A DNA stretch of 63,055 bases, filler included, from Kipferlia bialata (Eukaryota): NCBI GenBank assembly GCA_003568945.1. It is 7 parts of 7 records of this genome, joined end to end, with 100 filler letters (N's around TTAATTAATTAA, not from the genome) between each part and the next. Parts side by side here need not be neighbours in the genome. Positions count along the whole stretch, not along the records: positions 20,518 to 30,675 come from BDIP01001487.1; 6 more parts are not named here. The stretch is one strand, 5' to 3'. The notes under the pieces are model-generated. The model was not told where the DNA came from. It saw only the letters and a list, made by a program, of their open reading frames with translations, and searched no databases. A program made the position numbers and the translations under genes. This document shows, in pieces, positions 124 to 61,345 of the stretch. Within the stretch, counting starts at the first letter, position 1; every line of letters begins with the position of its first letter.

Positions 124-9955
<9,832 letters not shown>

Positions 9956-10159: not shown

Positions 10160-10259
10160 NNNNNNNNNNNNNNNNNNNNNNNNNNNNNNNNNNNNNNNNN
10201 NNNTTAATTAATTAANNNNNNNNNNNNNNNNNNNNNNNNNNNNNNNNNNNNNNNNNNNN
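10160..10259. other. artificial contig spacer N44-TTAATTAATTAA-N44 (also at 20418-20517, 30676-30775, 40928-41027, 51167-51266, 61402-61501)
   Basis: Identical 100-bp linker with stops in all frames. Complete contig lengths between spacers fall monotonically: 10158, 10158, 10152, 10139, 10135. Confidence 0.99.
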
Positions 10260-20605: not shown

Positions 20606-20809
20606 CTCCAGCCTGATGGTTCTGTACGTGCACCCCTGGCATTGAGGAGTGACCACTGTGTAGTCAAGATTAGGTATATACACAGTCAGAATCTCTCTCA
20701 CTCTCTCTCCATCGATATCTTCTTACTGTAGGGCGCATACCCACTATGGGTCAAGAGTGTGTACTCTTTATGGCGCACCTGTCATATTCTCTATCCCTCC
20801 CTCTATTTA

Positions 20810-20842
<33 letters not shown>

Positions 20843-23800
20843 CCTTATCTATAGATCCCCTACCCATAGGGGACTAGAGTGCACTCTCTATGCTGCCCCT
20901 CACATCTTCTCTCACTCTCTCTCTCTTCCTATATGTCTTCTGAATGCAGGGCCCACACCCATAGAGGCCTAGAATGCACTCTCTATGCTGCCCCTGTCAA
21001 TGACAATGGTACCCTTATACCAAGAGAGGGAGATGAGATAGGTTAGTACTATAGAGAGACATATATGTTTGCACTTATCTTACTCTCAGGCAGGCTCATA
21101 TCACACTACCAGCAGCTGAACCCTGATCTCACGGAGTGCCAGGTATATTTACCTGTATTATACACTAATCGTTACCAACACATACATGAAGTCACTGAAC
21201 TATTGAAAGGTAGTGTATACATCTAGATCTATATATCCCTGATCTCACGGAGTATCAGGTACTTATTTCCATATTGAATTACATATGTTCTTTCTCACAC
21301 CAAGATGTCAGTGTAATTTGCAACTCTCCCACGCTGCCCTGACATGCAGTCTGATATAGATATCGTATAGATAGACATGTATATTGGATTGAATATGTAC
21401 TGTTTTGTTGACGTCAGATGTCAATATATAGGTGCCACCCCCTAGACTGCCCCGACATGCTGCCTGATACTATATACATATAAACATATATACTATACTA
21501 TATATACCATATACATATTTTATTGAATGTGTAGTTCTCGATTAACGTCAGATGTCTATAGAAGGTGCCACCCTCCTAGACTGCCCCGACATGCTGCCTG
21601 ATACTATATACATATAAACATATTTACTATACTATATATATCCTTATTTATATGTATCAATGTATTGCCTACTCATACCAGATGTGCATTGAGGGTGCCA
21701 CCCTCCTAGACTGCCCCGATATGCTGCCTGATACATCTCTCTCTCTCTCTCCATACTTATATATAAATAGGTGTCACTACATTTCAGAAACTCATACCAG
21801 ATGTCTATAGAAGGTGCCACCCTACTGGACTGTCCCGATATGCTGTCTGGGTACCTACTCTCTGTCATCACACTGGCAGAGGGGGGGAGACCTATACCAG
21901 TATTAAACCCACATGCACTGGTATGTCTATACTATTAGTGCAATACCATATTCTCTATCCACTCTCTGTCATCACACTGACCGAGGGGGGGAGACCAATA
22001 CCCATATTGAGTCCACATACACTGGTACCATATGTGTTCATATATATACTGCTTTCTCTCATTGGATCAAGGCATTTGACACTTGTCTCACTCCTTGGTT
22101 CATTTATAGACTAGCTGTTATAGGATCAAATACACTTGTCTGACTCCTAGGTCAATGTATCCACACTCTCAGGGTGTGTCTATTGCCCAATGAAGAACGC
22201 GCTAGGTACGTTGGATGTTCATATATATATGTTGAGAGTGGTATGTATATATAGGTGTTACTCTCTGACCCCCAGACACCTATGTGTGTTCATATATATA
22301 TATATACATTTCAATGTCTGACCCCTCAGACAATAACTGTTCTTATGTATTGCTATTAGGTGTATATGTTCATTTTCTGACCCCCAGACACCTATGTGTG
22401 TGAGCCAGAGGGCATGAACTCACTGATGGACAAGGTATGTTGTATTTATCTTTGAGCACTCCTTTATACGGGACTGGTGTAGATGCTTACACTCTTATCA
22501 TAAGGGCACTATTCTTCACGGCGCCATCCAGGAGATTCCTAGCATTCAGTGCATATCAGTTACACACATACATATACAATAGTATTCAGATAGTATTTAG
22601 TTGTATTCTTACAATAGGGCACTATACTGCATGGTGCCATCCAGGAGATACTGGCCAAGAGACCAGAACACACAGGGGCAGCACTAGCCATGTACAGACA
22701 GGTACTGATAACACATCGACATTGACATGTATATGTATACTCAGATGTGATCACTTTAACATCGTCTGAATATATCACGCGTGGGCAGTACTAGCAGTGT
22801 ACATACAGGTAAGAGTTCTTTACATCCCCATAATGTCAGTCGTAACTCTTCCAATTATTTGTATATTATTGTGTCTAACCCCTCAGAACATCCTTCGTGA
22901 GGTGACTGCCAGACTGGACAGCATGGCATACAGCCTGGACCTGGCAGGTAACGATATTGTATATGTATATATATATTAGAGTATTACTATATATCAACAT
23001 TATTGGTCCTATGAGCTGACTATTCAGGACATCATGGCATACAGCCTTGACTTAGCAGGCACGTGATATATATCGTACATAGAGTAATCGTATACTCATC
23101 ATACAATGATCCAAAGTCTAGTGTCTACGACATACTGGACAGCATGGCATACAGCCTGGAGATGGTAGTTAATTATACAGTATGGAGACAATATATCACA
23201 TATAGATACCTCTTTTGAATTATAGTGTGAGTGTATGTCCACAGCCTATCCTTGTACATAGTGTTATGCTGTATTATACATGCAATTTTATATTATATAT
23301 GTTATACTATATTAGACTGACTCATCAGGTGACACCCCCCACCCCAACATTGTATTTATCCAATTATCCACCTCTCATATATCTTGTACTGACTGATCAG
23401 GTGACACCCCCCACCCCAAGCCAGACAGTGCCCTGGCCATGCACAAGTCACTCATGAAGGTATATATACATATATATATATATATACCCAACACACATAC
23501 ACACACATGTATATATACATATATATATTCCATGTATATATATACATGTATATATTCCATGTATATATATACATATATATATTCCATGTAAATATATTGC
23601 CCTGGCCAGGCACAAGTCACTCATGAAGGTATGGGGGATATGCGTGTGTACTCAATATATCACTATTCCATCGCAGTTAGTTGGATATACCACATGGTAT
23701 AGAACACTGTGTTCTCACCTGTAGGACATGGGCAACGTGGTCTCTCTCTCTGCCTCTCTCCTCGGTACATCCTCCCCTATTGTAGCACCTGTACCCGTGT

Positions 23801-26800
23801 GGCATAGTCCTAACACTACTACACACCCTGCAGTGAATGGTGCTACAATTCGTAGTGTCCACCCTAGCATGGGTACCTCTGCATCTAGTGGTATGCAACC
23901 TACAGTGGAGTTGGTAGGGTGTGAGACCCCTATGGTTGGACTAGGGTGCAAGGGTAGACTGGACGTAGTACTCAAGGACAAGGAGAGGGAGAGAGAGAGT
24001 ACCAGGGTGGTGGAGATCAAGACCACTCTTAAGGACCCGGTGTCAATGGGATATAGGGCGCAGGTATGGGTATCATGTAGATTCATATATTCATGATGTA
24101 TTGTACATCGTGTATTGTTGTTGTGACCACTCTGAAGGACCCAGTGTCAATTGGTTATAGGGCGCAGGTACGTACTTATATCATGTATGTTTCTCTGAGT
24201 ATTAGGTATTGCCTTCCATTGACCGCAGGCTCTCCTGTATATGAGCATGATCAGGTCTCGCAGAGCGTCGTCGCTAGGATCGAGGTATGAGATAATGATA
24301 CATAAACAGAATACCCAATAGTCCTATGAATATGCGTCCAAGCATCTATGAGTCTAAGTGTAGGCAGAGAAGTGCCCCCTACACAACCGATACTCAGTCT
24401 GACAATGACGACGTTGTTAGTGAACTAGCCGGAGTGAGATTCGTAGACATGAGGAAGGTAATCACGATTTCTACAACATCTTATATATCTTTTGTTACTC
24501 AGAGCTATGTTTGTGATGTGAAGAAGAGGGACTGCCGTCTCCATACACCCCAAGTATATGTAGATGTATTTGTATATAGATTCACCTAAGATATTAGTTA
24601 TATGTTACTCTCAATACCGATAGAGACAGTGTCGAAAGTCTAATTCGTAGAACAATGACTCTGGTCCACGTCCACCCCAACGCCCTACCCGGGTACCTGT
24701 CAAGAGTATGGGGGAGGAGGAGGACTTGATGGACCTACGAAACAGGTATGATGTCATTCAGTATATATGTATGTATATATAGAGATACGCATCATATTGT
24801 GTTTCTGTCAAGAGCATGGGGGAAGAGGAAGATCTTATGGATCTCAGGAATAGGCGAGTCATACTTGCACACCTAAGTCTCCTATGATACACATGGCATA
24901 CATCTTCTGGCACTCACATCCTCTTGCAATGTATAGAGAATTGTTTTCTATTGTATCGTGTCCAATACCCAGGTACATCCTGTGCCACTCCACCCTGCTT
25001 ATACTCCATATGGAAGCTTCATATGTATTATCAGTTCTAAATATCTCACCTTAGGTACATCCTGTGCCACACCACCCTGCATAAAGGGTCCAAGAGAGTC
25101 ACAGAGGTTGTAGATCTAACAGAGCCAACCATTGACACACCTATACCTGAACCAAGAGCTGAGCCAGCTCCCCCTACTGATATTGAGTCCCTTTGTAGTG
25201 TTATCCACTGTCCAAAGAGACAGGGCCAGTACTGTGGGTGCTGTCCATTGCACTCGAACGCGCCTAACGGAGAGGGAGAGGGAATGTGCAGTAACAATCT
25301 AGGTACGTGCAGTATTTTGGGGTGTCTTTGTTTCGATTTGTCTGGGTAATATTGGCACATTGGTATTATATTGTATTCCGTATATTGATCATATGCCCTC
25401 ACGCCTAGTATCCAAGTGGCTAGATATGATCAATTCAGAGGACGCTGCCATCAGCAAGGGCAGGGACAGCGTCATATTCTTCCACTCAAGGTATTGTTTG
25501 TGTATATATACCACACTATATGTCATGTATCAGATGTTGTTGTGAAATTGTGATTGTTTGGAGTAGTCTCTAACACCCTAGAAGGGGCACTGTATACACC
25601 CTCGACCCCGCCTCCAACACTGACTGGACATCTCCAGTTGTCCAGAGTGTGACTGGGGTGACAAGTATAGACGAGGACGACACCATCGAGTTGACATTCC
25701 GCTGCGAGTCACTCCCTTCTGTCGTCTACAGTGACTATGTATCCATCTCTCTCCTTGACAGAGAGACTCTCTCTCCTGCCTTACCCTCTCTGTGCACCGG
25801 GAGAGTGACAGCAGTGGACAGTCACTCTGTTACAGTATCTGTCTCCCTCTCTCTCTGGAGGGGGTCACTCAACCTGTCCAGAGTGTCAGCAGAGGACGTT
25901 AGAAGAGGGTGCTTCGCTATTTCAAATGTGAGTTATTCCCCCTCTATCCCCCTTCCCCTCTTACGTTGGTGAGACCTTCCCCCCATATTATATATTTGAA
26001 TACCCAGCGTCTCTCTCTCTCTCTCTCTTTATCCTGCCACTCAGTATTAGCACGCAGACGGTGCTCGTTCCTTAGTTACTCTTAGATCCACCTCAATATT
26101 TATGCTAGCCTCTCTCTTCTAACTGTTAGCACGCAGACGGTACTCGTTCCTTGGTCACTCTTAGATCCACCCTGATGTCTGACACTGTCCTTGTGCCCAG
26201 AGCCCTGTGTGTGTTAGGAACAGTTAGTAGAAGTAATAGGTATATATATACAACAATATATATGTATATGTATACAGGTATATGTCTGCCGGGGCAATAG
26301 GTCAACATATATTCATATATATATATACATATATGAGTACTTACTATATATAGTATATGTATGTGTGTATGTTGGGAACAGTCATCCGGAGCAAGAGCTA
26401 CCACACTATATATACAACATACGTACAATTGTACTATTATATGACTGTGTTAGGAAGAGTGAACAGTCTAGTTAGTATATCTGCATTGTTGTACTTACAC
26501 AGTGATGGATACCCTCCCATCCACCATGTCTCCCCCGATTCCATATATATAGTATCATGTGCACATTTCGAAGTATGTATGTATATTCACAAGTGCTGTC
26601 CCTCTCTCAACTGACCTCAGCGGTGGATACCCTCCCATCCCCCCTGTCTCCCCCCTTGCCACCTATGAGAGAGACTACCCAAGACTGGCCAAGTGCATAC
26701 CATTCAATGAGGGGCAGGCGGAGTCACTTATGGCACTGAGAGATACCCCACTGGTACTGACTCAGGTATATACGTTGTCCTCTATATATATACCTGTACT

Positions 26801-27167
26801 ATGACAGATTACATGGAACGATATGCCCCAAGGGCTATTGCCACAGAATACCTAGTAATCGTTAGTATAATGTTCTGGTGTTCTTGTGTTCTCTCATGTA
26901 TGTCTGTTTGACCTTCAGGGTATGCCAGGCTGTGGAAAGACTTCCTTAGCTGCAGCTGCGGCTATCGTCAAGTAAGTCACTCTTAATATTTCCCACAATG
27001 TCTTAGATGTCCTCTTCTCGTTTGGGTATGCAGTTACTGGCCCTGTTTTCAGTTCTCTATATTCTTTTGTTCAGCTTCTTATCCTAGACTACGTGACCCG
27101 ACGTCTGGTGTCCTTCTGATAGGGGCCACCAATGCAGCTGTGGACAACATACTACTAAGGTACATAT

Positions 27168-27198
<31 letters not shown>

Positions 27199-28738
27199 GT
27201 ATATACGTGTATTCACAATATACATTTATGCTCCTGATCGGTGCCACCAATGCAGCTGTGGACAACATACTGCTAAGGTACATATTCATATGTCCATATA
27301 CTGTATGTCCCAATATCTAGGATTGCAGAACAGAGCGTACAGTATGAAATGAGACTTGTATCTTCTACTGTCTATTATGGGTATGCACTGACTGAGTAGG
27401 ATGCTGGATGCCGTCCCGCTTGGCCCCCAGAGAGACAGGTTCACAAAGGGCACAATTAGAGTCGGGTCAAAGCACTGGTATGGATATAAGAAGCATATAT
27501 ATATATGTGTGTGTGTGTGTGTGTATGTGTGTGTGTATAAGTGAACGGAATGACACACTCGTAGTGGAAGTGACACATTGGTACAACACTTGTTTGGCGT
27601 ATGCATTATTCAATGATTGCCATACATTAGCGCCACAAACCTTATGGGCGCTCACTCTTAGTGTGAATCCCCTGCTCCACTCCGTTCTTCTAGAGAATAG
27701 GATACCAGAGCAGACATCCACCGACACTGAGGTGAGTATGTGTGAGTTTGTATAGATGCCCAAGACGTATATATTATCTACCATAGACTGCCCATGAGAC
27801 TTCAGTCTCTTCCGGACGTCCATTATAGGTTGGTTGTTCACAATATGTGATATATTTCAATCATATAGTCTTACTCTAGACTATCCTCCTGCAGGGTATC
27901 CTATCTAGCTGAAGGGCCATGGCAAGTACCAGATATATACATATGTGTATATGAATATATTTATACAAATATCAGACTATCCTCCGTCAGGGTATCCTCT
28001 CCAGGTGGAGGACTATGGCCACCTCCAGAGTGATGGCTGTGACATATATACATACATACATAAACCATGTTAATACTAACTCTAGACAATACTGCGCCAG
28101 GGTATTCTCTCCCGTTGGCGTACCATGGCCACTACTAGAGTGATGGCCGTCACTGCTCACTCATGCCACTCCAACGACGCAGTCAGGTTCTGGGCAAAGA
28201 GGTTTTCTAGCAGGTATTACACTATTAGTATTCAGACTATGGAGAAATACCCTGTGTTTGTATATGATGTTTGTATATGAAAGAGGTGGATGCAGTCAAA
28301 ATCTGGGCAAAGAGGTATTCTAGCAGGTTTGTATTATACCCCTAGCATATACACTACATTGTAGGAGTAACCTATTTATAACTATATATAGTCGGATTCT
28401 GGGCAATTGGGTATTCTAGTGGGTGCGATGTGTAAGATAGACGGAAGAATTACCCCATCTCTCTGAATACAAACTTAGATGCACTTCTCACATATAAGTG
28501 TACTATATATTATTGCACACTCACGTCAGACCTGTGCTTGTCATAATCGATGAGGCTGCCCAGCTCTCTGCCCCCTGGGGTGCACTGCCATTGGCATGGG
28601 CCACATCGGCACTGGTACTAGGTATATATATGTATGTTGTATATGTAGTATGTAATATATATATATTCATATGTATTAGTGTACGATTATTGTATGCACT
28701 TCCCCTGGCATGGGCCACATCGGCACTGGTGCTAGGTA

Positions 28739-28792
<54 letters not shown>

Positions 28793-30466
28793 TGTAGGAT
28801 AGAGTGTATTATTTCTCTGTATTGGCATCACATATTGTAAGCTTATATTCTTTCTCTCACCACTCCAGGTGACCCCAAGCAGATGTCACCCCTGTCCATG
28901 TGTGAGAGGTGAGTGGTTCATATATATGTTTACTATAAAGACCGTATTTACCATTGGTTTGAGTAAGTTACAGTATCTCATTCTTATTCCAGCTCAAATG
29001 ACGGAATGGGCGCCTCTCTCTATGCCTCCCTCGATGCCATTCAGTCCCACTCCATAGCACGCACTGTCCTATCCACACAGTACAGAATGAGCCAGGTATA
29101 CCAATATATATTTCTATATACATGTATACATGTAGTATATGTGTATAATCTTCTACTGTACATAATTAGCATTTCTATAGCACGCACAGTGCTGTCCACA
29201 CAGTACAGAATGAGTCAGTTAACGCCAACACTACACCTGTAGCGCCTTCCATTATGTCCAGATTCATCCTTGTATTTTGAATCCAATATGTTCTGTAATA
29301 TTTCATTATATCCCATATGTGACATTATATCCACGGAGGCCTGTTTGCTATTTAATGTATATGTCTAGTGTGTGTTACGGGATAATTCCCACCTCAGCCC
29401 CTCCTGTCCCTGTGGAATGACACATTCAGAGAGGTGTACGGCAAGGGGATGGTGTCAGGTATGGGTGTATGATTCAGTGGTACTCTGATACTCAAATATA
29501 TATGTTGGTATTAAACGTGGTATTTACCCCCAGGCCTCTCCTCTGAGCCTGACATGTCAATTAGAGTGTGAATATATTGATCCATACATGTATCTGTACA
29601 TCATGATGTTTAACCCAGGCCTCTCCTCTGAGCCTGACCTGTCCCCCAGGAACAGCCAGGTCCCATACCCACCAGACATGCCTAGGCTGAGGTATATATG
29701 CCAGATGCAACTGTGTTTGAATCACTACATCTATACCAATACATTGTATAACTACATATGTTTGTAACACATTCACTCTTAACCCCAGTCCCGGTCTGGC
29801 CGGCTGTCTAGCCTCTCCCCTCCCCTCCCTAGTAAGGGTGAGTGATGACCCAGTGGCAGTGGCGGTGGGCCTGGCAGTGCAGTGTATATGCAGGTACATA
29901 TAATCATACATGTGAAAATGAATATATATATGAATATATAGGTGTGTGTATGTGTGTGTGTAGCATGACCCAGTGACAGTGGCTGTGGGTCTGGCAGTAC
30001 AATGCATATGTAGTATCATATGTCACATATATGGATATACATGTATATACTGCAGTATTAGTCTATATACACTCACCCCCAGCTACAAGGTGACCCCCGA
30101 CCAAGTGAGTGTCATGTGTGGGTTCAGAAGGGACGCAGCCAGTGTCAGTGCGGCACTAGAGTCTATGGCCGTAAGAGGAGTTGAGGTGAATTGTTATATT
30201 ACTACAGTATGTCTGTGGGTGAACATATATATATATATATATATATTAGATGCAGCCAGTGTCAATGCAGCACTGGAAGGGATAGGAGTGAGAGGAGTGA
30301 AGGTATGACGACACAGTATATTGGATTGTATTTTTCTATATTACTATTGTGTAGTGTACACTATATCTTTCTTTAACCCCTAGGTCTCCACCATCGATGC
30401 CTTCCAAGGACGGTCCAAGAGGGTGGCCATACTGCTAGTTAGGGCTAGTCCAGCTGGGAGATACAG
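20606..30466 (+). CDS. DNA2: DNA2-like nuclease/SF1 helicase, multi-exon, partial at both contig ends
   Basis: Nuclease region: LNPHALVNVSTLSGCVYCP, GTILH, GCKGRLDVVL...VVEIKT...YRAQALLY (RecB-type PD-(D/E)xK), then a Cys cluster. Helicase region: QGMPGCGKT, GATNAAVDNILL, VIIDEAAQ, VLGDPKQMSP, LSTQYRM, VSTIDAFQG. The domain order matches Dna2. Confidence 0.85.
21300..21850 (+). repeat. exon-echo array: four acceptor-side copies of the DNA2 exon starting at 21801
   Basis: AG|ATGTC...GGTGCCACCC..C.AGACTGCCCCGA.ATGCTG variants at ~21305, 21417, 21552 and 21682. Confidence 0.88.
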
Positions 30467-30861
30467 GTATTACGTATACAAAATCATGCTATGATCAGTA
30501 TTATCAATACTGATTTGAACTAACTAGCGCGGCGTGACCCTCCGGGTCACCAGTGTGGCATACACTAATACATATTCCCCTGGACAGTACCTATACATTG
30601 ATTTATAGGAATACCGTCGGCATCTTATCAAGTGTTATGTGTGGTAGAATGCCAATACCGTCCATGGACAGTCTCNNNNNNNNNNNNNNNNNNNNNNNNN
30701 NNNNNNNNNNNNNNNNNNNTTAATTAATTAANNNNNNNNNNNNNNNNNNNNNNNNNNNNNNNNNNNNNNNNNNNNGAGATTTTTTACTTCCCCTTATACC
30801 CCCCCCCCCCCCCCTTCCTCCTCGGCCGTAGAACTCTTTCATGATATTCCCTATTGTGTCA

Positions 30862-33800
30862 GTGATCGATGCTCTACCCTTTCTCAGCCACATCCTCTCT
30901 CTCACCGCAAGGGGACCGCCGGTCTTCTGCCACCAGCCGTGTGTATCTGTTTGTGTCCAACTCCTATGCCTTCATCATCAGTGCAGGGGCCACCAGGTAG
31001 GCTAGGAGAGGGGGGGGGGTACAGGACTGTTCTGTGTTGTCACACAGTGATACATGCGATGTGGGTATGTGACTCACCCCAGGGACAGGGTCCAGCTGAT
31101 ATCCATCGACAGACACAGTGGGGCCCTGGTGCACAGGGGGGAGCCAGGTGGGGGCAGATTGTATGTCGTGCATTATTGGATGTCTGGGGGGCATGACTGG
31201 GTATATATATATGTATATTTCATATATACCCAGTATTCCTGCGAGTGTCTGGTTAGTACTGTGGGGGCTGATATCCCATTGTCCTATTACTACTCACTTC
31301 CTCCACACATCCAGCCGCATCTTAGACAATAATTGTGATCAGTGAATAGCGTTTGGCGTATGGCCCCACTTCCCCCTCCCTTTGTATATAGACACCTAGA
31401 ACTGAGACTTATACTGATACCTCTCAAGTACTCATCTCAGGTGTTGACCTGTTTGTGGATGTTGACGAGTGCTTCCTCTACCTGGTGGACAGACACCCCC
31501 AGATACAGAGGTGGGCAGGGCCGGTATATACATGCTGATGTGTGTCTGAGTGACGTTACTGTTCCATGAAGTGATATTTACTCTCACACATATATGTATT
31601 CTGTAAGAATTGGGTAAGAGTCGCAACCTACTGAGCCTTCCACTCTCTTCTGATGTATTCTTTCTGTCTTGCTTTGTCTTACCCCAGCAAGGGATACTGG
31701 GAGGGCGTGTGTCTGGCTGGCTACATCCCCTTTGCCTCCAAGGCAGTGCTTCTATTGGTCAAGGGGGCCCACGTCGTGGGGGTCTTAGGTATCACTCCAT
31801 AGTACTCTGTTGGTTACAAGTATAGGTTCAATGTATGGATTGTGAGACTATTCTTCTCTGATACGTCCAATGTATGTGTAGAATAGTCTGTAGAAATTGG
31901 ATCCTGTCTCTAATAGACTGTATCTATATGCCCAAGTATATATTGTAGGAAGCATTACAGATATACATGTATACATCGGTCAGGATACCCCTCTACCCCT
32001 CCAATCTCAGGTGGACAACACGAGGTCATGCAGTGTGAGCACATCGACACAGTGGTCATTCCCCTCCTCACCCCCTTCCACACCCTGGCAGCACCTGGAC
32101 CTGTACATGAGGTGGAGGTGAGGGCATCCCATGTGCAGTGGGATAACGGGAGGGGATCCCTATTGGCGTTATATGTAGCAATTCGTATCCTTCCACGGCC
32201 ACTGTCATAAACCTTTCATATGTATACATATCCTTTCTGGTTATCTTTCACCAAGTATTCTCAACTTCAGCAATCCAGTGAAAAGGAGAGGGAGAGGGAG
32301 GTGTTTAACGAAGAGAGTCAGGTGAGTCCATTTCATAATGATCGTGTGGGAACAGGTTTTAGTTGTCTCTGATCTCTTGCCAGTTCTATTAGTTGTGGTT
32401 GTGGCTATGTTATTGTCTCTTCCAGTCAGTCATCATATAACCATCTATGGATCCACCTCCCTTACCCTGCAGTTTGGGGCCCAACCGCGGCAGACGGAGA
32501 GAGAGAGAGATAGGGCGGATACAGCCAGAGACAGGGTCCCCTCAGAGAGAGAGCACCACACGACAGGAGACGAGCAGAGGGAGAGAGAGAAGGAGAGGGA
32601 GGCTCAGGTAAGGGTGTGGCTCAGTTGTATATCGGCGTTCCTTGGCTCTCATCCGCAGGACCAGTACCTGTGCCACCTCAAGATATTCCTGGAGTCCTAT
32701 GCACACTCCCTCTACTTCTGTGAGACGCTGGATCTGACGCGGCAGTTCCCATCAATGAGGTGAGTGATTTGTATGCAATATATTCAGAGATGACCGTAGT
32801 GATATATGTGTGAATGTTTGTATCGACACTCTCCTCAAACGGACATGGATATCTATATCGTGGATATCGCCGAGGGTTTATCATCTCATACTGTTCTTTC
32901 CACATATTAGTCCCCACCTCCCTTCTCACCCAGTGCTGTCGACAACCCAGCAGCAGCCTTCTGCTGGAACCACTCCCTTACAGTGGCCCTCAGACGCTGT
33001 GGGCTGCCTCACCTGGCCCCCCCTCTGCTACTAGGGTATATGTATATGTATATTTGTGGATTGTGTTCCATAGGTTATGATACTCTCTTCGTGCTGTGGC
33101 GGCAATGCATTCTGTTCATATCAATATTATTATGCCTGTAATTGTTTGTGTGTACGCTACAGTGTTTCATTCTGGACGTGTCTTTGAAATGATATGTTTA
33201 TGCACATTGGCCCTGACTTCTGATTCTAATGTCTACTCCGCCATTAGTGTGTCTGACCACAGGTCTGTGTCTGTGTCTGTTGCACAGTGTCCAGGCTCGG
33301 AGAGAGACAGGGAGAGAGAGAGACTGGAAGTGGAGGGAGGGAATGATTCAGGTGCGAGACGTGTATGTATACTGTTGCTTCTCCCTCTCTCCTTCTCTTC
33401 CTCTCCCCCCAGCCCCTTCTGTGGTGTGGATGTTCTCTCGCCTGGCCGTGACCCACCCGTACCTGTCAGACAGGGAGGGCATCGACCCAGTCAGCGGGGG
33501 GTGCACCATGGAGACAGAGATAGGTAGGCAGATAGGGGGGGGGGGTATACACTGAGGGTAGTGTCGAGTCCTCGGATAGTTCCCCTGGCTTCTGAAGGAT
33601 TGACATTTTGATATATAGCTGATGGATGGATTGACTGATCCCAGAGGTTGTGATGGAGCAGCGGCTCTCTGTGCCCCTCACTCCACCGTCTGTTGAGAGC
33701 GAGCGAGAGACATGCCCTGAGGACGAGATAGAGACTAGGGGAGACGGAGATGGTCCTCTCGAGTGTTCCAACCTCAGAGAAGGTACTCTCTCTCCCTAAT

Positions 33801-36800
33801 TTTGTATACAATGGAGCATTGGTTATTTGTGTATAGTATACACATATGTATATATGTATATATATATATATATGAGTATGTTTAGGTACTCGTTGTGTAT
33901 AGCCTCACCCCAGTGGACGAGGCATGTACTCCCAGCAGACCCACAGTCTCCACACCCAGAGGAGACAGAGACAGTGGGGAGGGGGCTGACATCGACGCTG
34001 CCTTCTCGTCTCCCTCTCCCTGCAGCGAGAGTGACAGAGACACCGTGGTGGCCACCCCCATAGCACCCCTGTCCCAGAAGGCCAGGTGCGAGTGCTATAT
34101 ATATTTAGTGGGGCATACACAGTGCGAGAATGACTGTAGGATATTTCTTGTGTCTCTACATGATATTCACCAACACCAGAGAGGAGAGGGACAAGCAGCG
34201 AGAGAGAGAGAGAGACGGAGACTACCGGTTTGGTCGCAATCCTCCAACTGAAGTACGTATTGGATGTGTAGAATGTTGGATCTACCTCAGTAGTCATGTA
34301 CTCTCATGGCATGCTTTTGACTCACCTGCAGGACACCAGTATGGACCAGTACTGGTTTGCCAGTCACATAGTGAGGACTGGGGGAAATCCAGTGGTGAGT
34401 GATTGTGCAGTACCCACTCTGAGTGACCGTGTGCTGTTATCCACATACCACCCTTGACCTCACTTCAGGTGCACTCCTCTCCGTCTCAGACAGAGGCCGA
34501 TGACGCCTTATACAGGTATGTTCCTTTGTGCTCTTCAGTGTTCTCTCCATTCTGTTTTGGACTCTCCCTCTCCCTCCCCCCCCCTCCCCACCCCCAGGTA
34601 CTGGTCGTCATACTCAGATCGTTATACAAAGGGGGTATACACCCCACGGCCTGGGACCAGTCCCCTGTCTCCCTGTGTCTGTGCTCCGTCAGTACACTGC
34701 ATCAACCTGTTGAGTCACAGGTACGTAGATGTGCAGTAAGGCAGTCTCATATCTTATGAGACACTCACGAATATATAGTGCTTTGTCGTTTGCGTACTCT
34801 GTGTCGTGTCAGGATGGTGTACTGACTTTCCAGGGGTACCTCTGTCCACTGTCAGTCCAACACACAGGTCCTGGAGACCATCGGTAGAGGTGCGGTATCA
34901 TGGAGTGTCTTTGTCCTTGTACTGTGAGTGTGTATATATAGTCTCGGATGTTCTTCTTCGCTGTCCTACCCTCCCCCCTCCCCTAACCCTCAGGTCTCCT
35001 GGACATGTCTGTGCGCCTTGGCCTGCCTGTGTCTGTGTCAGATGCCTCCATAGACACCCCAGACGTGGAGGACCATCTATCAGAGGTGGGTCCTTGGCAG
35101 CTCCTTGTGTTGTCTATTCTGATATGTGTTTCATCTGTACTTATATCAAATCATCATTGTCTGACCCAGGCCATCCAGCGTCTGTGGACCTGTCTCCAAG
35201 GGGTGGTCCAGAGTACACCAGGTACCTATACACTGCCTCACCACTTCCAGTATATATGTTGTGCGGCAGATCTAGTGTTGAGTCCTGTTTTGAAAGCCGA
35301 TGGTAAAGACACCAACATCAGATCTCTCTGTCCCGATTCCCTGTTCTGAGCCAAGTAACAGTAGAGGCGGCAACGTAGACTCCGGAGTATACACCTGCGG
35401 GGTCATGACTATATCCAGACGACACTCGCCCCTCCCGGAAGGAGAGAGAGAGAGGGATTTTGATGCATATGAAGACTCTATGGGAGGTTCTGTGTCTCTA
35501 TCTGTCAGTGGGGAAGGAGAGAGAGAGACTATAGTGACCAAAGTGCAGTTGAGTAAGAGGCAGACTAAGGTGAGATACCCAGTTCTGTTATCGCTTGAAA
35601 TTGCCATACCATTTCAGATCACAATTAGTACCACCCATGGTCTCTTTAACACCCCAGGTTATAAGGTTCCTGGCAGACGACTCTGGACACCTGGACGTGT
35701 CTCTGTTCCTTCTAGGTGATAAGTGATAACAAGTGTTCTATACCCTGTTGTGTATGTCTTGTACATGTGCTCAATGACTCTCTAACCGTAGGGACCCAGG
35801 TGCTGTCCGACATGCACGACTGTCTCAGCAGGCATGTGAGGGGAGGCACGCAGGGGGAGAGAGGAAGAGAAGGAGAGGGGGTGGCTAACACTCCCTGGAG
35901 ACTCCTGCCAAAGGTGACATCAGCCACGTTAATACTCATGTCATATCTATATTCTATGTATTGGTGAATGCCAGGGCCCGTCTTATCCCAGGTGGCCAAG
36001 CTCTCTGCGTCTCATGGCAATGACGCCGGTAACCAGTCTGGCGTGTCTATTCTGGATGGACAGCAGGAGGTATGGGTCTGTGACAAATGGCATTCTCCCC
36101 CCCCCCCTCCTTCATGTCTTGTGTTGTATCGCCCTGACCCCAGGTGTATACGGTGTGTGGCCAGGATGGGACACCGACATGCCTGTCAGACTACGACGAT
36201 GTGCTGAAGCAAGTCAGGCATGCTAGTGCTATCCACAATCGAGTCAATGCGACTGTCTAATGTAGAGCATTCCTCTTTGTCCCTCTCTGACTGCCAGGTA
36301 CAGCATGCCGTGTCCCCTCGTGCATGCTCTGGCCTCTGCCTACCAGCAGCACATGGACGCGTGTAGTGTGTTCAGGGGCGACCCTGACCCCTGGTGCAAC
36401 AGGGTCATAGAGGGGTACACACCCAGTGAGAAGGTACATGCATTCTCATCCGTTGAGATATACTCTCATATATCCCATATTTGTGTTCTGGGTCAAGGTT
36501 TACTGGAGTCTTGGGTCGTTTCCTCCTGACTCCAGCTCCCCCCCACCCGTCACAGGCAGAGACACCGCAGGATGGTGGCATCTTTCCACCACTCTCTGAA
36601 TGAGGTATGGTTGGTCTCACATCATTCCCAGTATGTGCTTTATCCCCCCCCCCCCCCTTATGGTCAGGATGTCTTTGGGGCCATGTCCGGCAGACACTTG
36701 ATAGCCAATCCCTACCTCAGTACTCTGTTCTCAGGGCCCAGTGAGAGAGGAAGAGTGGGGCGAGTAAGAGGCGCGGACAAGAAGAGGGAGAGAAAGGCCT

Positions 36801-39800
36801 CGTCCGTGTCAGGTATCTACCCTTGTCGCTCATCTGTCTGCTACGTTGTGGAAGAAGAAGTCCGACACCTTATCACTCAAAGTGTTTCCACATTTCTTTT
36901 CTCTGTATGTCCATTACTTACCCCTAGCTATTCAGCCCCGTGGCCACTCTGCCCCCTCAGAGTCTCTGGTGCAGGTGGGTCTGTTGTTGCTGGTGCTGTT
37001 CTTCTCTGTTATAAGTGTCAACCGTTCTCCATATATACCATTTGGCACACCATATATCATAGTTGTTCACCGCTTATGCCCAGCTCTGTACCTGCTCCCA
37101 GACAGTCTCTCTGACTCAGTCCGAGATGGACAGGGAGAGCCCTGCTGAGCGGCAGAGGCGGGAGGAGAGAGAAGTGGAGAGGGAGAGGGAGAAGCGTCAG
37201 CAGCGGAACAACACCGTAGAGCTGGCTGCATCTCGACGCCCTGTGCCCCTACCCAGTGTACAGGTGTGTACAGTGTATGTAGGTTCAGTCTAAGAGGAGT
37301 TTCTGAAACTGTATCTATTGTTCAGGGCCATATCCACCCTCTTAATCTCAGCTCTCCTGCCACGTGCGTGGAAGTGCCTCAGAGACCTGTGCCACGGATG
37401 TACCAACCGTCAGGGGGAGGACGGATATCCCTGGAAGGTGGGTAGAGTGTATGTATACAGTACGGAGTAAGCGTGTGAGTTTCATGAGTTGGTGATCTAC
37501 TCTACGTGTATATACTGATATTACCTCACCCTTGCACATTTCTGTGTTGGGCCCCCTCTCACCCTGCAGCACAGACGCTCTCGATTCCATCGACTCCATC
37601 CATGTGCGTGCCACACGGAATGGGACTGAGGAGGAGCAGAGTGCGAGTGAGGGTGAGGGTGAGGGTGAGGGAGTGGAGTCACGCCCCCCAGTATGTGAGG
37701 GAGACTCTGACACCTATATGGAGGAGACGGTCCTCGCCCTGCCGTCCCCTTCGTCGCTGGCCTACCTGTCTCTGTCCCTCCCTGTGTGCCCTTCCCTATC
37801 AGGATCTCTGCCTGTACCCCTACCCCTCAGCGTGGCGGTGGAGACAGGTGCGACCCAAGACTTACGGCATACTTACCCCTCCATCACCCTGCCCCTTTCA
37901 CCCTCCAGGTCCCTCCCTTGAGTCTCTGTCTTCAGTTCTACTGGCCACGCCTCTCCCAGCATTGGCCCCAGGTATGCGGTGTGTCTTCACTTTCCTTCCA
38001 GCACTCTGTCAGTAACAAGTGTCAGAAGTAACGCCGTACGTGGTGTCTCGAGCGATTAGACCTGTGTCTCACCTGCAGGGGATGCCCCCCTTGTGTCAGA
38101 CGCAGAGATGGAGAGAGAGCGACTCAGAGTGGAGAGGAGGGAGAGAGATAACCTTCAACGTGGTGGTGTGAGCGGGTGAGTGTTTCTCTCTGTATATTGG
38201 TTCTATTTCCTATTAGGATCCTACTTCCAATGAGTCTCTCATGCTAATGGGCAGGTTTGTCCTGAACGAGTCATTGACTGATATGAGTTCCCTCCTACCC
38301 GTGGGCAGGGAGAGAGAGAGAGAGAGAGACATAGTCATGCCTGTGAATGCTCTTGGGGCAGGGCACTCAGTTCGACAGGAGAGAGAGGACCGTGGGGAGT
38401 ACGGTTTGTCTCGTCCTTCCATGCCGATGTCCGCCCAGAACAGCCCAGGGGTGTCATTTAGACAGGTACGTGTTTACTGCATGAGTGGCATTTTAGTGGA
38501 GATAGAATTCACCTGTGTCTTTGTGATATCACTTTGTATATTCATATTGTCTTGAGAGTGAGTGCCCGTCACTGACCCAGCCGATGTCGCTGGGGGACTC
38601 GATGCTGGACGAGGGTAGGGACAGAGAGAGGGACACAACCTCATTCTACGGATCTAGAGAGAGGGAGAGAGAGAGAGACAGGCAGTCTACGGACAGCATG
38701 AGGGTACGGTGATATATATATTGTTGATGGACACGGCAGTCTCTGCATCTAGCATGTGAGGTGTTATCCTCTACTATTCACCCCAGGTTAGTGTTTGCAT
38801 CCCATTGAGTGCCAGCTATGACAGGAGTGTTACATTCAGGGGCACCCGTACGGTACCAGAGGAAGTCGTATCCGTAAGGTGTGATATCTCTTTTGGTGTC
38901 TCTTCCCCCCTTTCCTCACCCAGGGGTGCTGTCTCAGGCACATCCTCCCTCGGCAGACACAGACACAGTATAGAGGGGTCAGCCGACATAGAGAAGGTGG
39001 GGGTCAGGAACTGGGCATACGTACATATAACGAGTGATCTCTACCCAATTATGATACGTGTTCAACCATTGGTACAACTGTAAGTGGTCATTCAGTCTCG
39101 AGCCATTGCTCTCGAGTTGCATAGTCTCTATATATATATGTGTACTATCTGCAGGACTCTCACCTACAGGTCCAGCGTCTGGAGTCCGAGGTGGAGGCCC
39201 TCTGTGCATTCACTACCGAGCAGGTGGGTGTGTCGTCTGTCACGCTATAGGCTGGTGTCAAGGTGTCAGTGGAGTAGGGTGTTGTGTCAAGTGTGACCAT
39301 TATCGTGTACCTCTGTGTTTCCCGATATTTTCAATCATTATATGCTCGTCACTTCATAATAGTTGTATAGTCAACAGGTCTGACTGCAGGTGCAACGTCA
39401 GAGACAGTCCCCCAGGGAGAGGCAGGTAAGATGATTCACTACATCAGTGTATTTATCAATAATCTACATGTCTGCACTTTCAGCCTTGCCACTATTACAG
39501 ATTCCTCCCAGGTTTCCTTCGGCCATACTGTTCTGATGTTGATGTCTGTTCTACTCTTCTTATGTGCCAGGAAGAGGATACCAGGGGTTCTGTAGTGTAT
39601 CTGCAGGAAGACCCGCTGGTGTCTGTGGTCAAGGTGAGTACTTGTGGGTGTTTGTACAAGGAGATAGGCGTAGCCAGTATCATCAGACTCTGATACAATG
39701 GACGGGACTGTTAGCAAGCTGGTAGTTGCAGGGACGCCGTGGTTGGTATTATAGAGATATAATCCCCTCACCTCCAGGTTACCATCAAGTACCAGGCCTC

Positions 39801-40751
39801 TGCCTGTCCTGAGGCACACCCAGGCACAGATCATCACCCAGGACTCAAGGTGGGTATGAGGATACAGCCAGCCATGGTGTAGATAGACTATGCCACCCTT
39901 GCTGATGCCTTGTCTCATTGCCAGGCTACGCTGTATGGCTATCCCCTCTCCCACATGCACATTGTGACCGCCTCAGACGTTCTAGCCACTGAGGGAACCA
40001 AGCATGGGCTCTATCTGCCAGGTGGGCTTTGCCTTTGTATCACTTCCAGTCATTGCTATCATTGTCGTTGCTTGCGTCGGTGTCCGTGGCAATCGATGCG
40101 TATTCTACTATAGTCCACTCTACTCTCCCTCTGACTCCCAGCCAGAGTCTCAGTTGGTACTGGGTCATATGCGGATGGAGGTACATACGAAATGTAATAA
40201 GCGTTAATATGTCTGAGTATGACTTGGTACTCGTAACTTGACGGTTTCATGTTCACTATATGTCTATATTCACTATCAATATGGAGAGTTGAATATTAAT
40301 TACAATTTGTGGTCTTTCATGTTTCCGTGTCATACCAACCATCTCTCACTGTAGGTATAGACCGTGACGCTGACATGACATCCCTGTACCTGAGTGCCAT
40401 TCTGTCCAGACAGAGGAAGCAGAGAGAGAGAGAGGCAGAGGGAGAGGCGACCGACAGAGACCTCCACTCTACCAGACTCAGCGGGAGGGGGGGGAGGGCC
40501 AAGTACCCTTCTACACCAGGTAGTAGTGTCGTACACTGTGTGCTAGATGTAGTTGTATGTGTGGTTGTGTATATGTCTCCTCGCACCTGCCTCTGACCCC
40601 AGGTGGGGAGTCCGGTGTGTCTACCCTCCCCCCCAGGTCATCACGGCACAAGGCCCAGCCCCATACACATACACCCCATACACATACACCCCACACCAAC
40701 AGGAGGGGGATGCCGGTGTCTCTGCCCGTGTCATCACCCTCGCCAGCACAG
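30862..40751 (+). CDS. large multi-exon hypothetical protein (possibly more than one gene); boundaries approximate
   Basis: Alternating GC-rich exon-like blocks and GT-AG introns on + across the whole contig (e.g. QYLCHLKIFLESYAHSLYFCETLDL; DMTSLYLSAILSRQRKQRE). No family recognised. Confidence 0.45.
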
Positions 40752-40876
40752 GTATGTATATATGAGTATATGTATGCATGTATGCGTATGAGTATGTGGA
40801 AGCAATGGGACGTGGTATGCAAGGGACAATCATGTACCATTGAATCCAGCTCTGCTGTATCTCTTTAGCTTCACCG

Positions 40877-40927
<51 letters not shown>

Positions 40928-41099: not shown

Positions 41100-41500
41100 C
41101 GATTCTCCCTGTCAAAGTGCTTGATACAGACAATGGCAAGGTCAGATACTATATATATTAACAACAATATATATATATATACTATATAAGTATATACTAT
41201 ATATATATATACATATATACCTTGTACATCTCCCTGTCAAAGTGCTTGATACAGACAATGGCAAGGTCAGATAGTATATATACTACACATACTACATATA
41301 TATATATACATATATATATATACCTTGTACTGCTCCCTGTCAAAGTGCTTGATACAGACAATGGCAAGGTCAGATACCATATATACTACATATGTACTAC
41401 ACATACTATATATATATATATATACTATATGTATATATATATACCTTGTACATCTCCCTGTCAAAGTGCTTGATACACACAATGGCAAGGTCGGTGTGGG
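41100..41500 (-). repeat. exon-echo array: three donor-side copies of the pflA exon end (GACCTTGCCATTGT.TGTATCAAGCACTTTGACAGGGAG..GTACAAG|GT)
   Basis: Copies at ~41323-41375, 41219-41272 and 41104-41148, downstream of the true exon on the minus strand. Confidence 0.9.
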
Positions 41501-43003
41501 GCAGGATGACACGCTCGGCACGCTTCGGTCCTACTGTCAGACACAATATAATATACATATACATACATACACAAGGGGTCCTGGCATAATAGTGCATCAC
41601 ATTATGTAGATTATACTATAGTAACTGTATCTGCAATACTACATATATACATATCATACATGCATATATCACGTACCGATACCAGAGGAGCAGAGGCATG
41701 TGGTGAGGCCAAGGTCGTGGGTGCGCTAGGGTGAGAGAGAGGTAAAGCGACACTGACACAATACTACCCATGTATATATACATTCATATACATACCTGGA
41801 ATATGTTTGCCACAAACACTGACTGCACAGATGGGTCACAAGATACGTATACAATAATGATATCTACCTATATATACTAGAGATTTTTGTGTATATATAC
41901 TGTCTATATACATATGCTATGTACTGGTATAAGTGTACCTGGAATATGTTTGCCACAAACTCTGGCTGCACAGATGGGTCACCACCGGAGATGGAGACAC
42001 CGCCGCCCCTGATATAAGGATATCAAAATGGTAATTGAATATATATATAGAGAGCATACCTAGACTTTCGCCAGGCCTTCTTACTGAATGAATGGCAATA
42101 ATAATAAAGATATATACATTGTATATGTACACACATACCTGGGCTTGAGCCAGGCCTTCTTGCGGGAGATCTTGGACATCAGGGAGTCGACTGGGGTGAG
42201 GACGGTCACAATATAGAGTGTATACATACATATACATGCACAAACACACACATATATATAGTTGGGAGACCTTGGACATCAGGGAGTCGACTGGGGGTGA
42301 GTGCCAATACAATGAACTTAGAATATGACACGTTGGACTTCGAGATCTCTCTGTCTCTCTGTCTCCCTCTCTATATATATACATCATCTATATATATACA
42401 TCATCTATTCATATATCCCAACCTATTATGGATGACCCCACATTGCTCTGCCATCTCTCTCTCTATATATATAAGAATACATTATATATACACTTTATAA
42501 CTTAACAAATATGTGTATATGTATATACCTGTCATGGATGGCCCCACATTGCACTTCCAGGTGTCTGGGTTGGAGCAGAACATGCACTTGAGGTTGCATC
42601 CCTTATGGTTAGATACTATATGAATTATAAATAACAATAGTGTAACATTATAGTGTATATATACACTTCTCCTAGAATATATATGTGTCTGGGTTGGAGC
42701 AGAACATGCACTTGAGGTTGCAGCCCTAGGAATTAGATAATACTATTGACACATACATAGAGTGTATATACATTGATGGGTCAGTTAGTATATGTATATA
42801 GAGTATATACATATATATATTATATTATACCTGCAAGAAGATCTGACAGTTTGGTCTGGTGTCTTCCAGGTCTATCTATATTCAAGTATTTAATGTATAC
42901 ATATAGTATATACCTGCAGGAATATGAGGTATCTCATGCCGGGTCCGTCCAGCATGGTCATGGACTCCTCAGAGTGCACAAAGCCCCTGGCGCCAACCTT
43001 AAC
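41445..43003 (-). CDS. pflA: pyruvate formate-lyase activating enzyme (radical SAM), multi-exon, partial
   Basis: Exons give GFVHSEESMTMLDGPGMRYLIFLQ|GCNLKCMFCSNPDTW (CxxxCxxC)...GGVSISGGDP..QPEFV...GLTTCLCSSG...LPHTDLAIVCIKHFD. DGPG.R...F.QGC is the PflA signature. Confidence 0.9.
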
Positions 43004-51468: not shown

Positions 51469-53182
51469 CCCCTGGTGTCCCGTTTCTTGGTACCCCTGTC
51501 CTCACTGGAACCAGATCCATAGGAGGGGAGGGCGAGACAGAGGGGGAGCGGGGGCGTGACAGGGTGTGTCAGTACGAGTACACCTGGGTGGATGCACAGT
51601 ATGTCACAGAGGTAACGTGGTGTATATACCCCTATACCATGTTGTTACGTCTATATGAGTATATGAATATGGTTTCTAAGTCATAGACACCTGGGTGGAT
51701 GCACAGTATGTCACAGAGGTAAAGTGATAGTATACGATATACTCTCTTATGTTACATGTCCCTCTACCATTATCAGTTACCATGCTAACTAATGCCTCTC
51801 TCCTACTCCAGCGAGTGTCTATTCTTCGTCATCCTATCTCTCTCTCTCTCTCTTCCTCTAATATCGGAGAGTGTCTATCCTCCGTCACACCCTATTAAAT
51901 ATATCGTGCGTATGTATACCAGTCTCTCACTGCAGAGAGTGTATATCCTCCGTCACACCCTCTCTGACTCTGACCTGCTGTGTGACGCATGTGGCCTCAT
52001 ACCCTGTGATAGTGATAGTGACAGTGATAGTGATAGTCTGGTGTTGGATCCAAAGCTATTAGTAGGAGAGGGAGAGGGAAGTGATACCGAAGCCAGTTCC
52101 CCAGGCTCCCCCGTTTCCCCCAGTCCCCTCCCTTCTCTCTCTCCCTCTCTGAGCCCTGCTGTACCTTCAGTGCTACCCTCCCCTGCACCCCTACAGCCAT
52201 CTCTGACTGATGTGGTGCCAATCATATGCAGCACAACTAGACTAGGTATTCGAGATTGTATATATGTATATGTATGTATATATACTCTTATGTGTACAGT
52301 GTATGACCATCTGTGACTGATGTGGTGCCAGTGATATGCAGCACAACTAGACTAGGTAATTGTAATTACGTATATGTATATATATATTCTCTATGTATAT
52401 AGTATATATGTTCCCAGCCATCTGTGACTGATGTGGTGCCAATCATATGCAGTACCATACGGTTAGGTATTCTATATTGTATATATGTATATGTATGTAT
52501 ATATACTCTCTCTGTACAGTGTATGACAATCTGTGACTGATGTGGTGCCAGTCATATGCAGCACTACACGGCTAGGTATGATTGGATATGTGCTTTCTAT
52601 GTACACAGTGTATATGTATTGTATGCGCTGTGTTTCTATTTTATCTTACCCCCCAGAATCCATCATCCTGCCCCTTGCCCTCACCTCCATATAATACAAA
52701 CATTAATATATATTTCATACATATATATATATGAGTGTGTGTTCTTCTATCTGACTCCCAGACTCTCTGATTCTGTCCCTTGCCCTCACCTCCCTCGGTG
52801 CGACACCCGTCTCTCTCTCTCCCTGCCTGCCCCAGCAGTTCTTTCCACACAGTGACAGTAAGGGTGTAGAGAGGAAGAGAGAGACTGAGAGGGAGAGAGA
52901 TGCAGAGTCTGAGAGTGAGGGTGGCCATGGGAGGAGACTATCTATCAGCTCAGCGAGGAAGGAGAGAGAGCGGGAGAGAGAGAAGGGTATTGCACCCCCT
53001 GATATGGTGAGAGTGAGGGGGGTGGACATGGGGCACAGACAGGCTATCCGCAGTGTTAGGTATTCATATTGTATATATGTATGTATGTATATACTTATAT
53101 ATATGGTCAGAGTGAGGGGGGTTGACCTGGGGCACAGACAGGCTATCCGGAGTGTGAGGTAGTAGCATGGTAGTATATATTC

Positions 53183-61204: not shown

Positions 61205-61345
61205 CTGAGGGTGAGGGTATATGTATACTTACATATGTATATATATTAACCACTTATGTACAATACATATATGTATATAGCATCAACTAGACAGAAGAGT
61301 ACATGGTCCACCAGGGGGTGAGTATATATATAGATTGATACTATA

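Follow-up and report, generated by a model that had tools for sequence, protein, structure and literature searches.

Introns of Kipferlia bialata hold apparently silent, synonymously diverged copies of adjacent exon ends that likely derive from diverged alleles

How can an intron hold a copy of the preceding exon end that differs from it in most codons and still encodes the same peptide? The question is raised by the DNA2 helicase/nuclease gene of Kipferlia bialata, a free-living protist, in which such a copy lies a short distance behind a used donor site. The window analysed here is a stretch of 63,055 nucleotides composed of intron-rich eukaryotic contigs of assembly GCA_003568945.1 joined by N spacers; all counts refer to this one window and not to the whole genome. 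A 12-nt TA-rich spacer between N runs (10204-10215 and similar), with six occurrences, reflects contig joins and not biology. We call a copied piece of an exon edge inside the adjoining intron an echo. The DNA2 locus comprises the following elements.

20606..30466, plus strand: DNA2 helicase/nuclease gene, partial, 31 exons; echoes in 20 of 30 introns, 29 anchored echoes
24125..24167, plus strand: neighbouring donor echo with intact GT; 3 synonymous and 1 nonsynonymous differences; skipped in RNA
24651..24745, plus strand: functional exon, last 49 nt (24697-24745) echoed; covered by an RNA contig with 0 other letters and joined to 24457 and 25055
24746..24804, plus strand: spacer of used GT donor (score 7.3) and AT-rich truncated intron with no good acceptor
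24805..24853, plus strand: donor echo, a copy of the exon end, then GC; 11 differences, same peptide; donor score -0.4
24854..24972, plus strand: core intron of 119 nt, from the last donor-like to the first acceptor-like site; presumably the other allele's intron
24973..25001, plus strand: acceptor echo preceded by an intact AG, a copy of the next exon's start; differs by 2 nonsynonymous changes and is skipped in RNA
25002..25054, plus strand: second spacer, ending with the used branch point and AG (RNA contig, site scores)
25055..25302, plus strand: next functional exon (RNA contig)

The gene is identified as DNA2 by annotated K. bialata protein records identical to the window exons. Its 31-exon model is stop-free and all of its residues (1060/1060) are identical in the annotated DNA2 protein P0121, and hence the reading frame is independent of the echo. 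P0121 adds 11 and 9 residues at two places relative to the model and contains the focal peptide once. Pfam searches with window exons gave weak matches to single short exons only. Altogether, 13 partial gene models were curated by hand in the window, all of them stop-free.

At the focal site, the order of elements is exon end, GT, spacer, echo, GC and a full-length intron. The 47-nt stretches 24699-24745 (exon end) and 24807-24853 (intronic copy) differ at 11 nucleotides in 9 of 15 codons without any amino-acid change. Both translate in the same frame into the peptide VKSMGEEEDLMDLRN; in every one of the five remaining frames the proteins differ. TTG/CTT and CGA/AGG are two-nucleotide switches, the exon runs into GT and the copy into GC, and the likeness reaches 2 nt further 5' (24697/24805). 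The counting method assigns one nonsynonymous step to this pair, solely from path averaging at TTG/CTT, where an all-synonymous path exists. An earlier note on this DNA had described the exclusively synonymous differences, the two-step switches and the GC donor of the copy, all of which direct comparison bears out. It had also judged a neutrally decaying duplicate implausible for this pair. Simulation agrees: with the exon restricted to synonymous changes and the copy neutral, at least nine changed codons without amino-acid change arose in 0 of 48,000 simulated pairs (8 settings).

Echoes are not confined to this site. Alignment of exon ends to neighbouring introns, with frame ignored, gave 121 matches, as compared to 2 among 1317 unrelated exon-intron pairs. 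We kept the 115 anchored at a splice site and dropped six, namely five apparent pieces of gapped echoes and one CT-repeat match. These 115 echoes, 13-69 nt long, occupy 66 of the 154 introns examined and 10 of the 13 gene models. Of these, 65 are downstream copies of an exon 3' end and its donor and 50 are upstream copies of an exon 5' start and its acceptor, whereas wrong-way copies (0/252 tests) and copies in the next intron (0/113 tests) were not found. Echoes are adjacent direct copies straddling one splice site, and donor echoes precede acceptor echoes in 12/12 mixed introns. Spacing between donors has a median of 110 nt (n = 58, quartiles 102-118) and between acceptors of 98 (82-112), compared to 96 (75-128) for plain introns and 68 for spacers, and the core left between echoes has normal intron length. 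Echo and spacer length are anticorrelated for donor echoes (rho -0.36, p = 0.004) and not for acceptor echoes. Simple repeats are enriched at the junctions of acceptor echoes (p = 1e-4) and not of donor echoes (p = 0.16), so that repeat-rich junctions were rejected as a general rule; microhomology could be told apart only by comparison with the parental intron. Three further loci illustrate the range of divergence.

3173..3429, plus strand: one RNA polymerase largest-subunit exon with three donor echoes; codons for one serine are TCT, TCC, AGC and TCT over the four copies
27880..28043, plus strand: two acceptor echoes of exon 28086; 27976-28043 with 12 synonymous and 3 nonsynonymous differences; 27880-27933, more decayed, with 11 synonymous, 6 nonsynonymous and one stop
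61280..61311, minus strand: acceptor echo in another gene, 32 nt; 6 synonymous and 0 nonsynonymous differences; AG changed to TG

Several observations concern individual loci. The RNA polymerase largest-subunit gene (3017-9926) encodes a C-terminus without heptad repeats that is rich in G, S and A. The intron-rich gene at 41445-43003 (minus strand) has a translation that we take, by its motifs, to be like pyruvate formate-lyase (PFL) activating enzyme; Pfam gave no match for one of its short exons. An acceptor echo of exon 20950 at 20732-20784 shows numerous synonymous changes plus a net insertion of 3 nt and was left out of the counts as gapped. At 21305-21849, four acceptor echoes all end at one exon position with a donor-like GT, where a donor echo of the same exon starts; this might mark a lost intron, for which a window-wide test was negative. 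Contig 30776-40927 (10 kb) has echoes in 0/15 curated introns, and its introns are less TA-rich. An annotation-free scan for local direct repeats found none there, as compared to 11-43 in the other five contigs scanned. In the window it stands beside contigs with 33-43 repeats, an arrangement of echo-free and echo-rich compartments.

Are the copies expressed? RNA evidence consists of assembled contigs over 23640-25960. One contig of 3663 nt without other letters, from run X2, which we presume to be RNA and whose contig is spliced at GT-AG, joins 24745 to 25055 and 24063 to 24229. All three echoes in this stretch are left uncovered, with no cover at 24810-25043, and the intact GT at 24168 and AG at 24972 are both skipped. 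The same contig rejected 23765-23833 as an intron. It also skips 24503-24553, rejected as an exon, an open exon-like stretch with AG and GT that weakly resembles the start of exon 24651 and is possibly an old echo. The suggestion in the earlier note that the copy is still used is not supported, as the contig takes the first copy only. In addition, the focal echo ends in a GC donor and by site scoring has neither its own acceptor nor a good donor of its own (the best AG inside the spacer 24746-24804 scores 2.2 vs. 12.6 for the used acceptor), and other echoes contain stops, frameshifts and broken splice sites. Echoes could still be in use as rare alternative exon ends or as repair templates that replace exon ends, hence with persisting protein-level selection. 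GT or AG is intact in 101/115 echoes, sites score as high as true ones in 26/65 donor and 25/50 acceptor echoes, and contigs by nature drop rare forms, which leaves room for rare use. Against this, 3/3 echoes are skipped in the stretch covered, a good acceptor lies ahead of only 2/65 donor echoes and a good donor behind 3/50 acceptor echoes, and echoes with broken sites show an equal synonymous excess (0.19 vs. 0.25). We consider use of this kind quite improbable. Lacking the partner site in nearly all cases and absent from RNA contigs (3/3), echoes do not behave as alternative or mutually exclusive exons. Moreover, the RNA junctions are the outer sites of one enlarged intron, which differs from intron gain by proto-splice-site duplication. 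The annotated protein agrees with outermost-site use in all 20 echo-bearing DNA2 introns, although this annotation was RNA-guided and is not independent. Where RNA could be checked, unpaired decoys are ignored and the outermost donor and acceptor are used.

Over all exon-echo pairs, pooled pS is 0.28 and pN 0.066. The whole-codon pooled pN/pS is 0.22 (95% 0.175-0.283, cluster bootstrap over 82 exon sides; 99% upper bound 0.31) and 0.23 with any of the three echo-richest genes left out. Simulated simple tandem duplicates with a neutral copy and a constrained exon gave 0.41-0.50 (lowest 0.34 in 100 replicates). This comparison, which the earlier note had proposed, rejects the neutral duplicate in the window. 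The value of dN/dS near 1 at which the note would have given up its claim was too lax, since even the neutral copy in these simulations yields 0.41-0.50; the data reject that value as well. Its claim that protein-level selection shaped both versions is thus supported at the focal pair and, by the synonymous excess, window-wide. At least four synonymous and at most one nonsynonymous difference were found in 13 lopsided pairs and the reverse in three. Amino-acid differences are conservative (BLOSUM 0.21 vs. -0.47), multi-nucleotide synonymous switches number 15 among 1195 codons, and changes private to one echo are synonymous in 44/95 cases (p = 1e-4 vs. 0.28). Third-position changes are symmetric (118 to 108); at non-third positions the echo leans from GC to AT (86 to 60, p = 0.04). 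Gene E (0.63) and the presumed PFL-activating enzyme gene (0.71) lack a synonymous excess, which we count against an origin from alleles. The same holds for the echo-echo pN/pS of 0.43, which is not decisive alone and could also result from successive duplications of the exon, each of a different age.

The distribution of changes within arrays suggests when the synonymous differences arose. By rank from the exon, pS is flat (0.30, 0.28, 0.32; p = 0.89) and pN rises (0.05, 0.07, 0.13; p = 3e-5), and the distal echo is more decayed than the proximal one in 11/21 arrays and less in 6. Echoes contain four stops, with 4.0 expected under neutrality, as well as deletions of 13 nt and 5 nt, frameshifts and broken splice sites. 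Since pN rises with distance while pS does not and damage accrues at the neutral rate, synonymous divergence would have been mostly present at birth. Splice dinucleotides of echoes changed at 18/230 nt (0.078), which is close to the pN of 0.066, and hence decay since arrival can explain most amino-acid differences.

The flanking introns bear on the same point. Even where the coding part is nearly identical, an echo usually adjoins intron sequence that does not resemble that next to the exon. Among near-identical echoes, the flank exceeds the 95% null in 1/12 donor and 4/12 acceptor cases, the residual likeness being weak and near the splice site. Clearly homologous flanks (above the 99% null), as in ordinary tandem copies, occur in 5/63 donor and 9/48 acceptor echoes, which counts against an origin from alleles. 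For a same-allele duplicate at pN 0.07, flanks should be about 87% alike if substitutions dominate. At the focal site, the spacer 24746-24804 is unlike the core intron (p = 0.18), which gives no sign of a duplicated intron part; together with a pN/pS of 0.22, below 0.4-0.5, this does not correspond to simple same-allele tandem duplication.

A more elaborate version posits old tandem duplicates on the same chromosome in which the rate of change in the echo is about one third of that at synonymous sites and in introns, owing to constraint at the nucleotide level or to gene-conversion refresh, such that most differences are synonymous drift of the exon. It does not require extreme diversity, and it would account for the echo-echo ratio of 0.43 and for differences common to several echoes (27 synonymous to 7 nonsynonymous), as expected on an exon branch. 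The four-copy array at 52194-52575 has near-identical spacers 1 and 3 and mosaic exon-like ends, suggesting gene conversion among copies, which fits this version. However, pS is flat by rank while pN rises, stops appear at the neutral rate alongside frameshifts and broken splice sites, and unrelated flanks already stand beside near-identical echoes. By algebra, simple two-way conversion would hold pN/pS near or above 0.5, and by arithmetic a same-allele rescue requires exon synonymous sites to evolve about three times faster than the echo, which the flat pS disfavors. We regard this explanation as unlikely.

Duplication of whole exons, both long in use, with one copy later losing half its length, would need no diverse alleles to explain the synonymous divergence and the unrelated introns. 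It predicts wrong-way remnants as frequent as right-way ones, and their absence (0/252) largely refutes it in the window. In addition, acceptor echoes have no leftover donor signal behind them (p = 0.91), on which ground a lost-intron or whole-exon origin of acceptor echoes was rejected; whole-exon duplication is hardly credible. A paralog as source was likewise rejected: a search returned one DNA2 match among 631 candidates (a weak negative), and echoes occur in 10/13 gene models.

Could the tandem layout stem from assembly, if the culture was mixed or heterozygous and two of its haplotypes were stitched together? The assembly is a short-read assembly of a diploid, and no single molecule with both copies was observed directly. 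Yet exact repeats in 24651-24972 reach 10 nt at most and every 21-mer of 24690-24870 is unique in the window, which leaves no repeat to mis-join on. DNA run X1, which may be the assembly source, contains 0.99 of 645 sampled 31-mers of 22500-28500. Strict polarity, rank-dependent decay, stops and frameshifts are, moreover, marks of evolution. An artefact of this kind appears very improbable.

The echo phenomenon is real and general within the window, apparently silent and likely allele-derived. We hold it probable, though well short of certain, that the intronic copy is an apparently silent exon-end piece of a diverged, functional DNA2 allele, brought in by an out-of-register junction between homologs. 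Copies that differ as alleles do, with a synonymous excess, conservative amino-acid changes and symmetric third positions, are consistent with such a junction. Of the two origins named in the earlier note, the diverged functional allele fits best, with its donor allele not found, and a single homeolog is the poorer fit, given three synonymous states in four of 218 codon columns. The latter could take the form of a single second subgenome from one hybridization, after which heterozygosity was lost across the genome with imprecise junctions. In keeping with this, a single alternative version is often common to sister echoes (those at 57469 and 57586 each show 8 synonymous differences from the exon), and echo density is patchy, with one 10-kb contig echo-free. 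Besides the three-state columns, overdispersed synonymous divergence in DNA2 (p = 2e-6) and gene J (p = 0.002), although not in the polymerase gene (p = 0.92), argues against it, and we judge it improbable.

For an origin from a diverged allele, two routes can be envisaged. A break inside an AT-rich intron would be repaired off a homolog whose introns are no longer alignable; copying would cross the homolog's intron and end about 30-60 nt inside the next exon, after which the copied end would be rejoined to the broken intron stump by aborted strand annealing and alternative end joining. Alternatively, two offset breaks on homologs would be joined. By either route, the left copy would come from allele A and the right copy from allele B, giving, in order, exon A with its donor, the intron stump, the end of exon B with its donor and the whole intron B; for acceptors the order is mirrored. 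The polarity would be explained if the reading frame survives only in products straddling one splice site, and mRNA would stay correct because splicing uses the first donor and the last acceptor. Newer copies would displace older ones outward from the exon, and neutral decay would follow. Aborted copying with alternative end joining and offset-break joining are indistinguishable in the present data, and the tight unit of about 110 nt, which the allele-junction model leaves unexplained, counts against it, as does the enrichment of simple repeats at acceptor-echo junctions only.

The search for a second allele gave no candidate. No second version was found at 80% likeness among RNA contigs, protein clusters of window genes have one member each with no second allele or isolate, and of two metagenome scans one gave no match for the DNA2 exon and the other nothing beyond 34-residue chance matches (L001-L003). 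The implied synonymous diversity corresponds to a pooled pS of 0.28, with 0.40 in DNA2 and saturation at the focal pair. It meets or exceeds 0.20, the highest value that we found in print (PMC4576712), and we count this against an origin from alleles. Given the missing donor allele and the extreme diversity required, this origin is what we infer rather than observe. According to the available text of the genome paper, K. bialata is inferred to be diploid (PMC5874029). Sections of a comparative study report that metamonads lack classical end joining and that Rad51A is missing from fornicates, which retain meiotic genes; sex has not been observed (PMC8516963).

Parts of the proposed mechanism are known from other systems, described here from the accessible portions of the sources. 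In the Drosophila P{wa} assay, aborted synthesis-dependent strand annealing (SDSA) with alternative end joining, i.e., halted templated copying and then end joining, would yield the echo layout; there it is an experimental repair class at one induced gap, described in those portions neither as a standing intron feature nor as a record of diverged alleles (PMC8951532). Out-of-register chromatid joins after offset meiotic breaks in mouse duplicate the interval, and inter-homolog joins and aborted gap repair are seen as well (bioRxiv 10.1101/2020.06.23.168138). These events differ in being rare, at hotspots, mostly in ATM mutants and kb-scale, with deletions as the inter-homolog products presented, and in contrast to mouse end joining, Kipferlia is reported to lack the classical pathway. 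Heterogeneous duplications by unequal crossing-over likewise place two different alleles in tandem on one chromosome (PMC6121789), yet they comprise whole functional genes under selection, unlike the 13-69 nt apparently silent fragments of Kipferlia. Proto-splice-site duplication also leaves a short tandem coding copy inside an intron. There an exonic AG/GT copy makes a new intron, whereas in Kipferlia an existing splice site is doubled with no intron gain and the copy arrives synonymously diverged. In the hyperdiverse Schizophyllum commune, very diverged alleles recombine mainly in conserved exons; duplicated exon edges go unmentioned in the portions at hand, and the diversity implied for Kipferlia is equal or higher (PMC4209137, PMC4576712). 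No description of such echoes was found in searches of openly available full texts, and a prior mention elsewhere is possible. The strings "duplicat", "heterozyg" and "alternative splic" are absent from the main text of the K. bialata genome paper (PMC5874029), and passages of PMC6679479 mention the species for spliceosome content only. Each part of the mechanism is known already; what we did not find in print is allele-like fossils accumulating in about 40% of introns.

Whatever their origin, echoes bear on splicing, as the spliceosome disregards up to four decoy sites in introns of a few hundred nt. Site choice likely follows pairing across exons (exon definition), with recognition by base composition as the alternative; available passages of PMC2397502 state that intron definition predominates in protists. 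In most introns of all models, a branch point CTCAC/CTAAC/CTGAC lies 4-6 nt before the exon, nearly fused to the 3' splice site. Gene finders are misled by echoes, many of which the automatic model called as exons. Tens of thousands of natural decoys would render splice-site choice directly testable. If the origin from alleles holds, echoes would be dated traces of homolog exchange in a metamonad without observed sexual processes, diversity and recombination would be readable from a single genome, and repair outcomes would become visible in a lineage from which classical end joining and Rad51A are reportedly absent. More tentatively, and with somewhat less than even confidence, we propose that Kipferlia routinely recombines alleles with unalignable introns and that junctions at a fixed offset of about 110 nt wrote many fragments of past alleles into about 40% of introns. 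If true, cryptic sex and a record level of diversity would be archived in one genome, from a group in which sex has never been observed, and an exon-pairing spliceosome would make the fragments tolerable in a protist with short introns.
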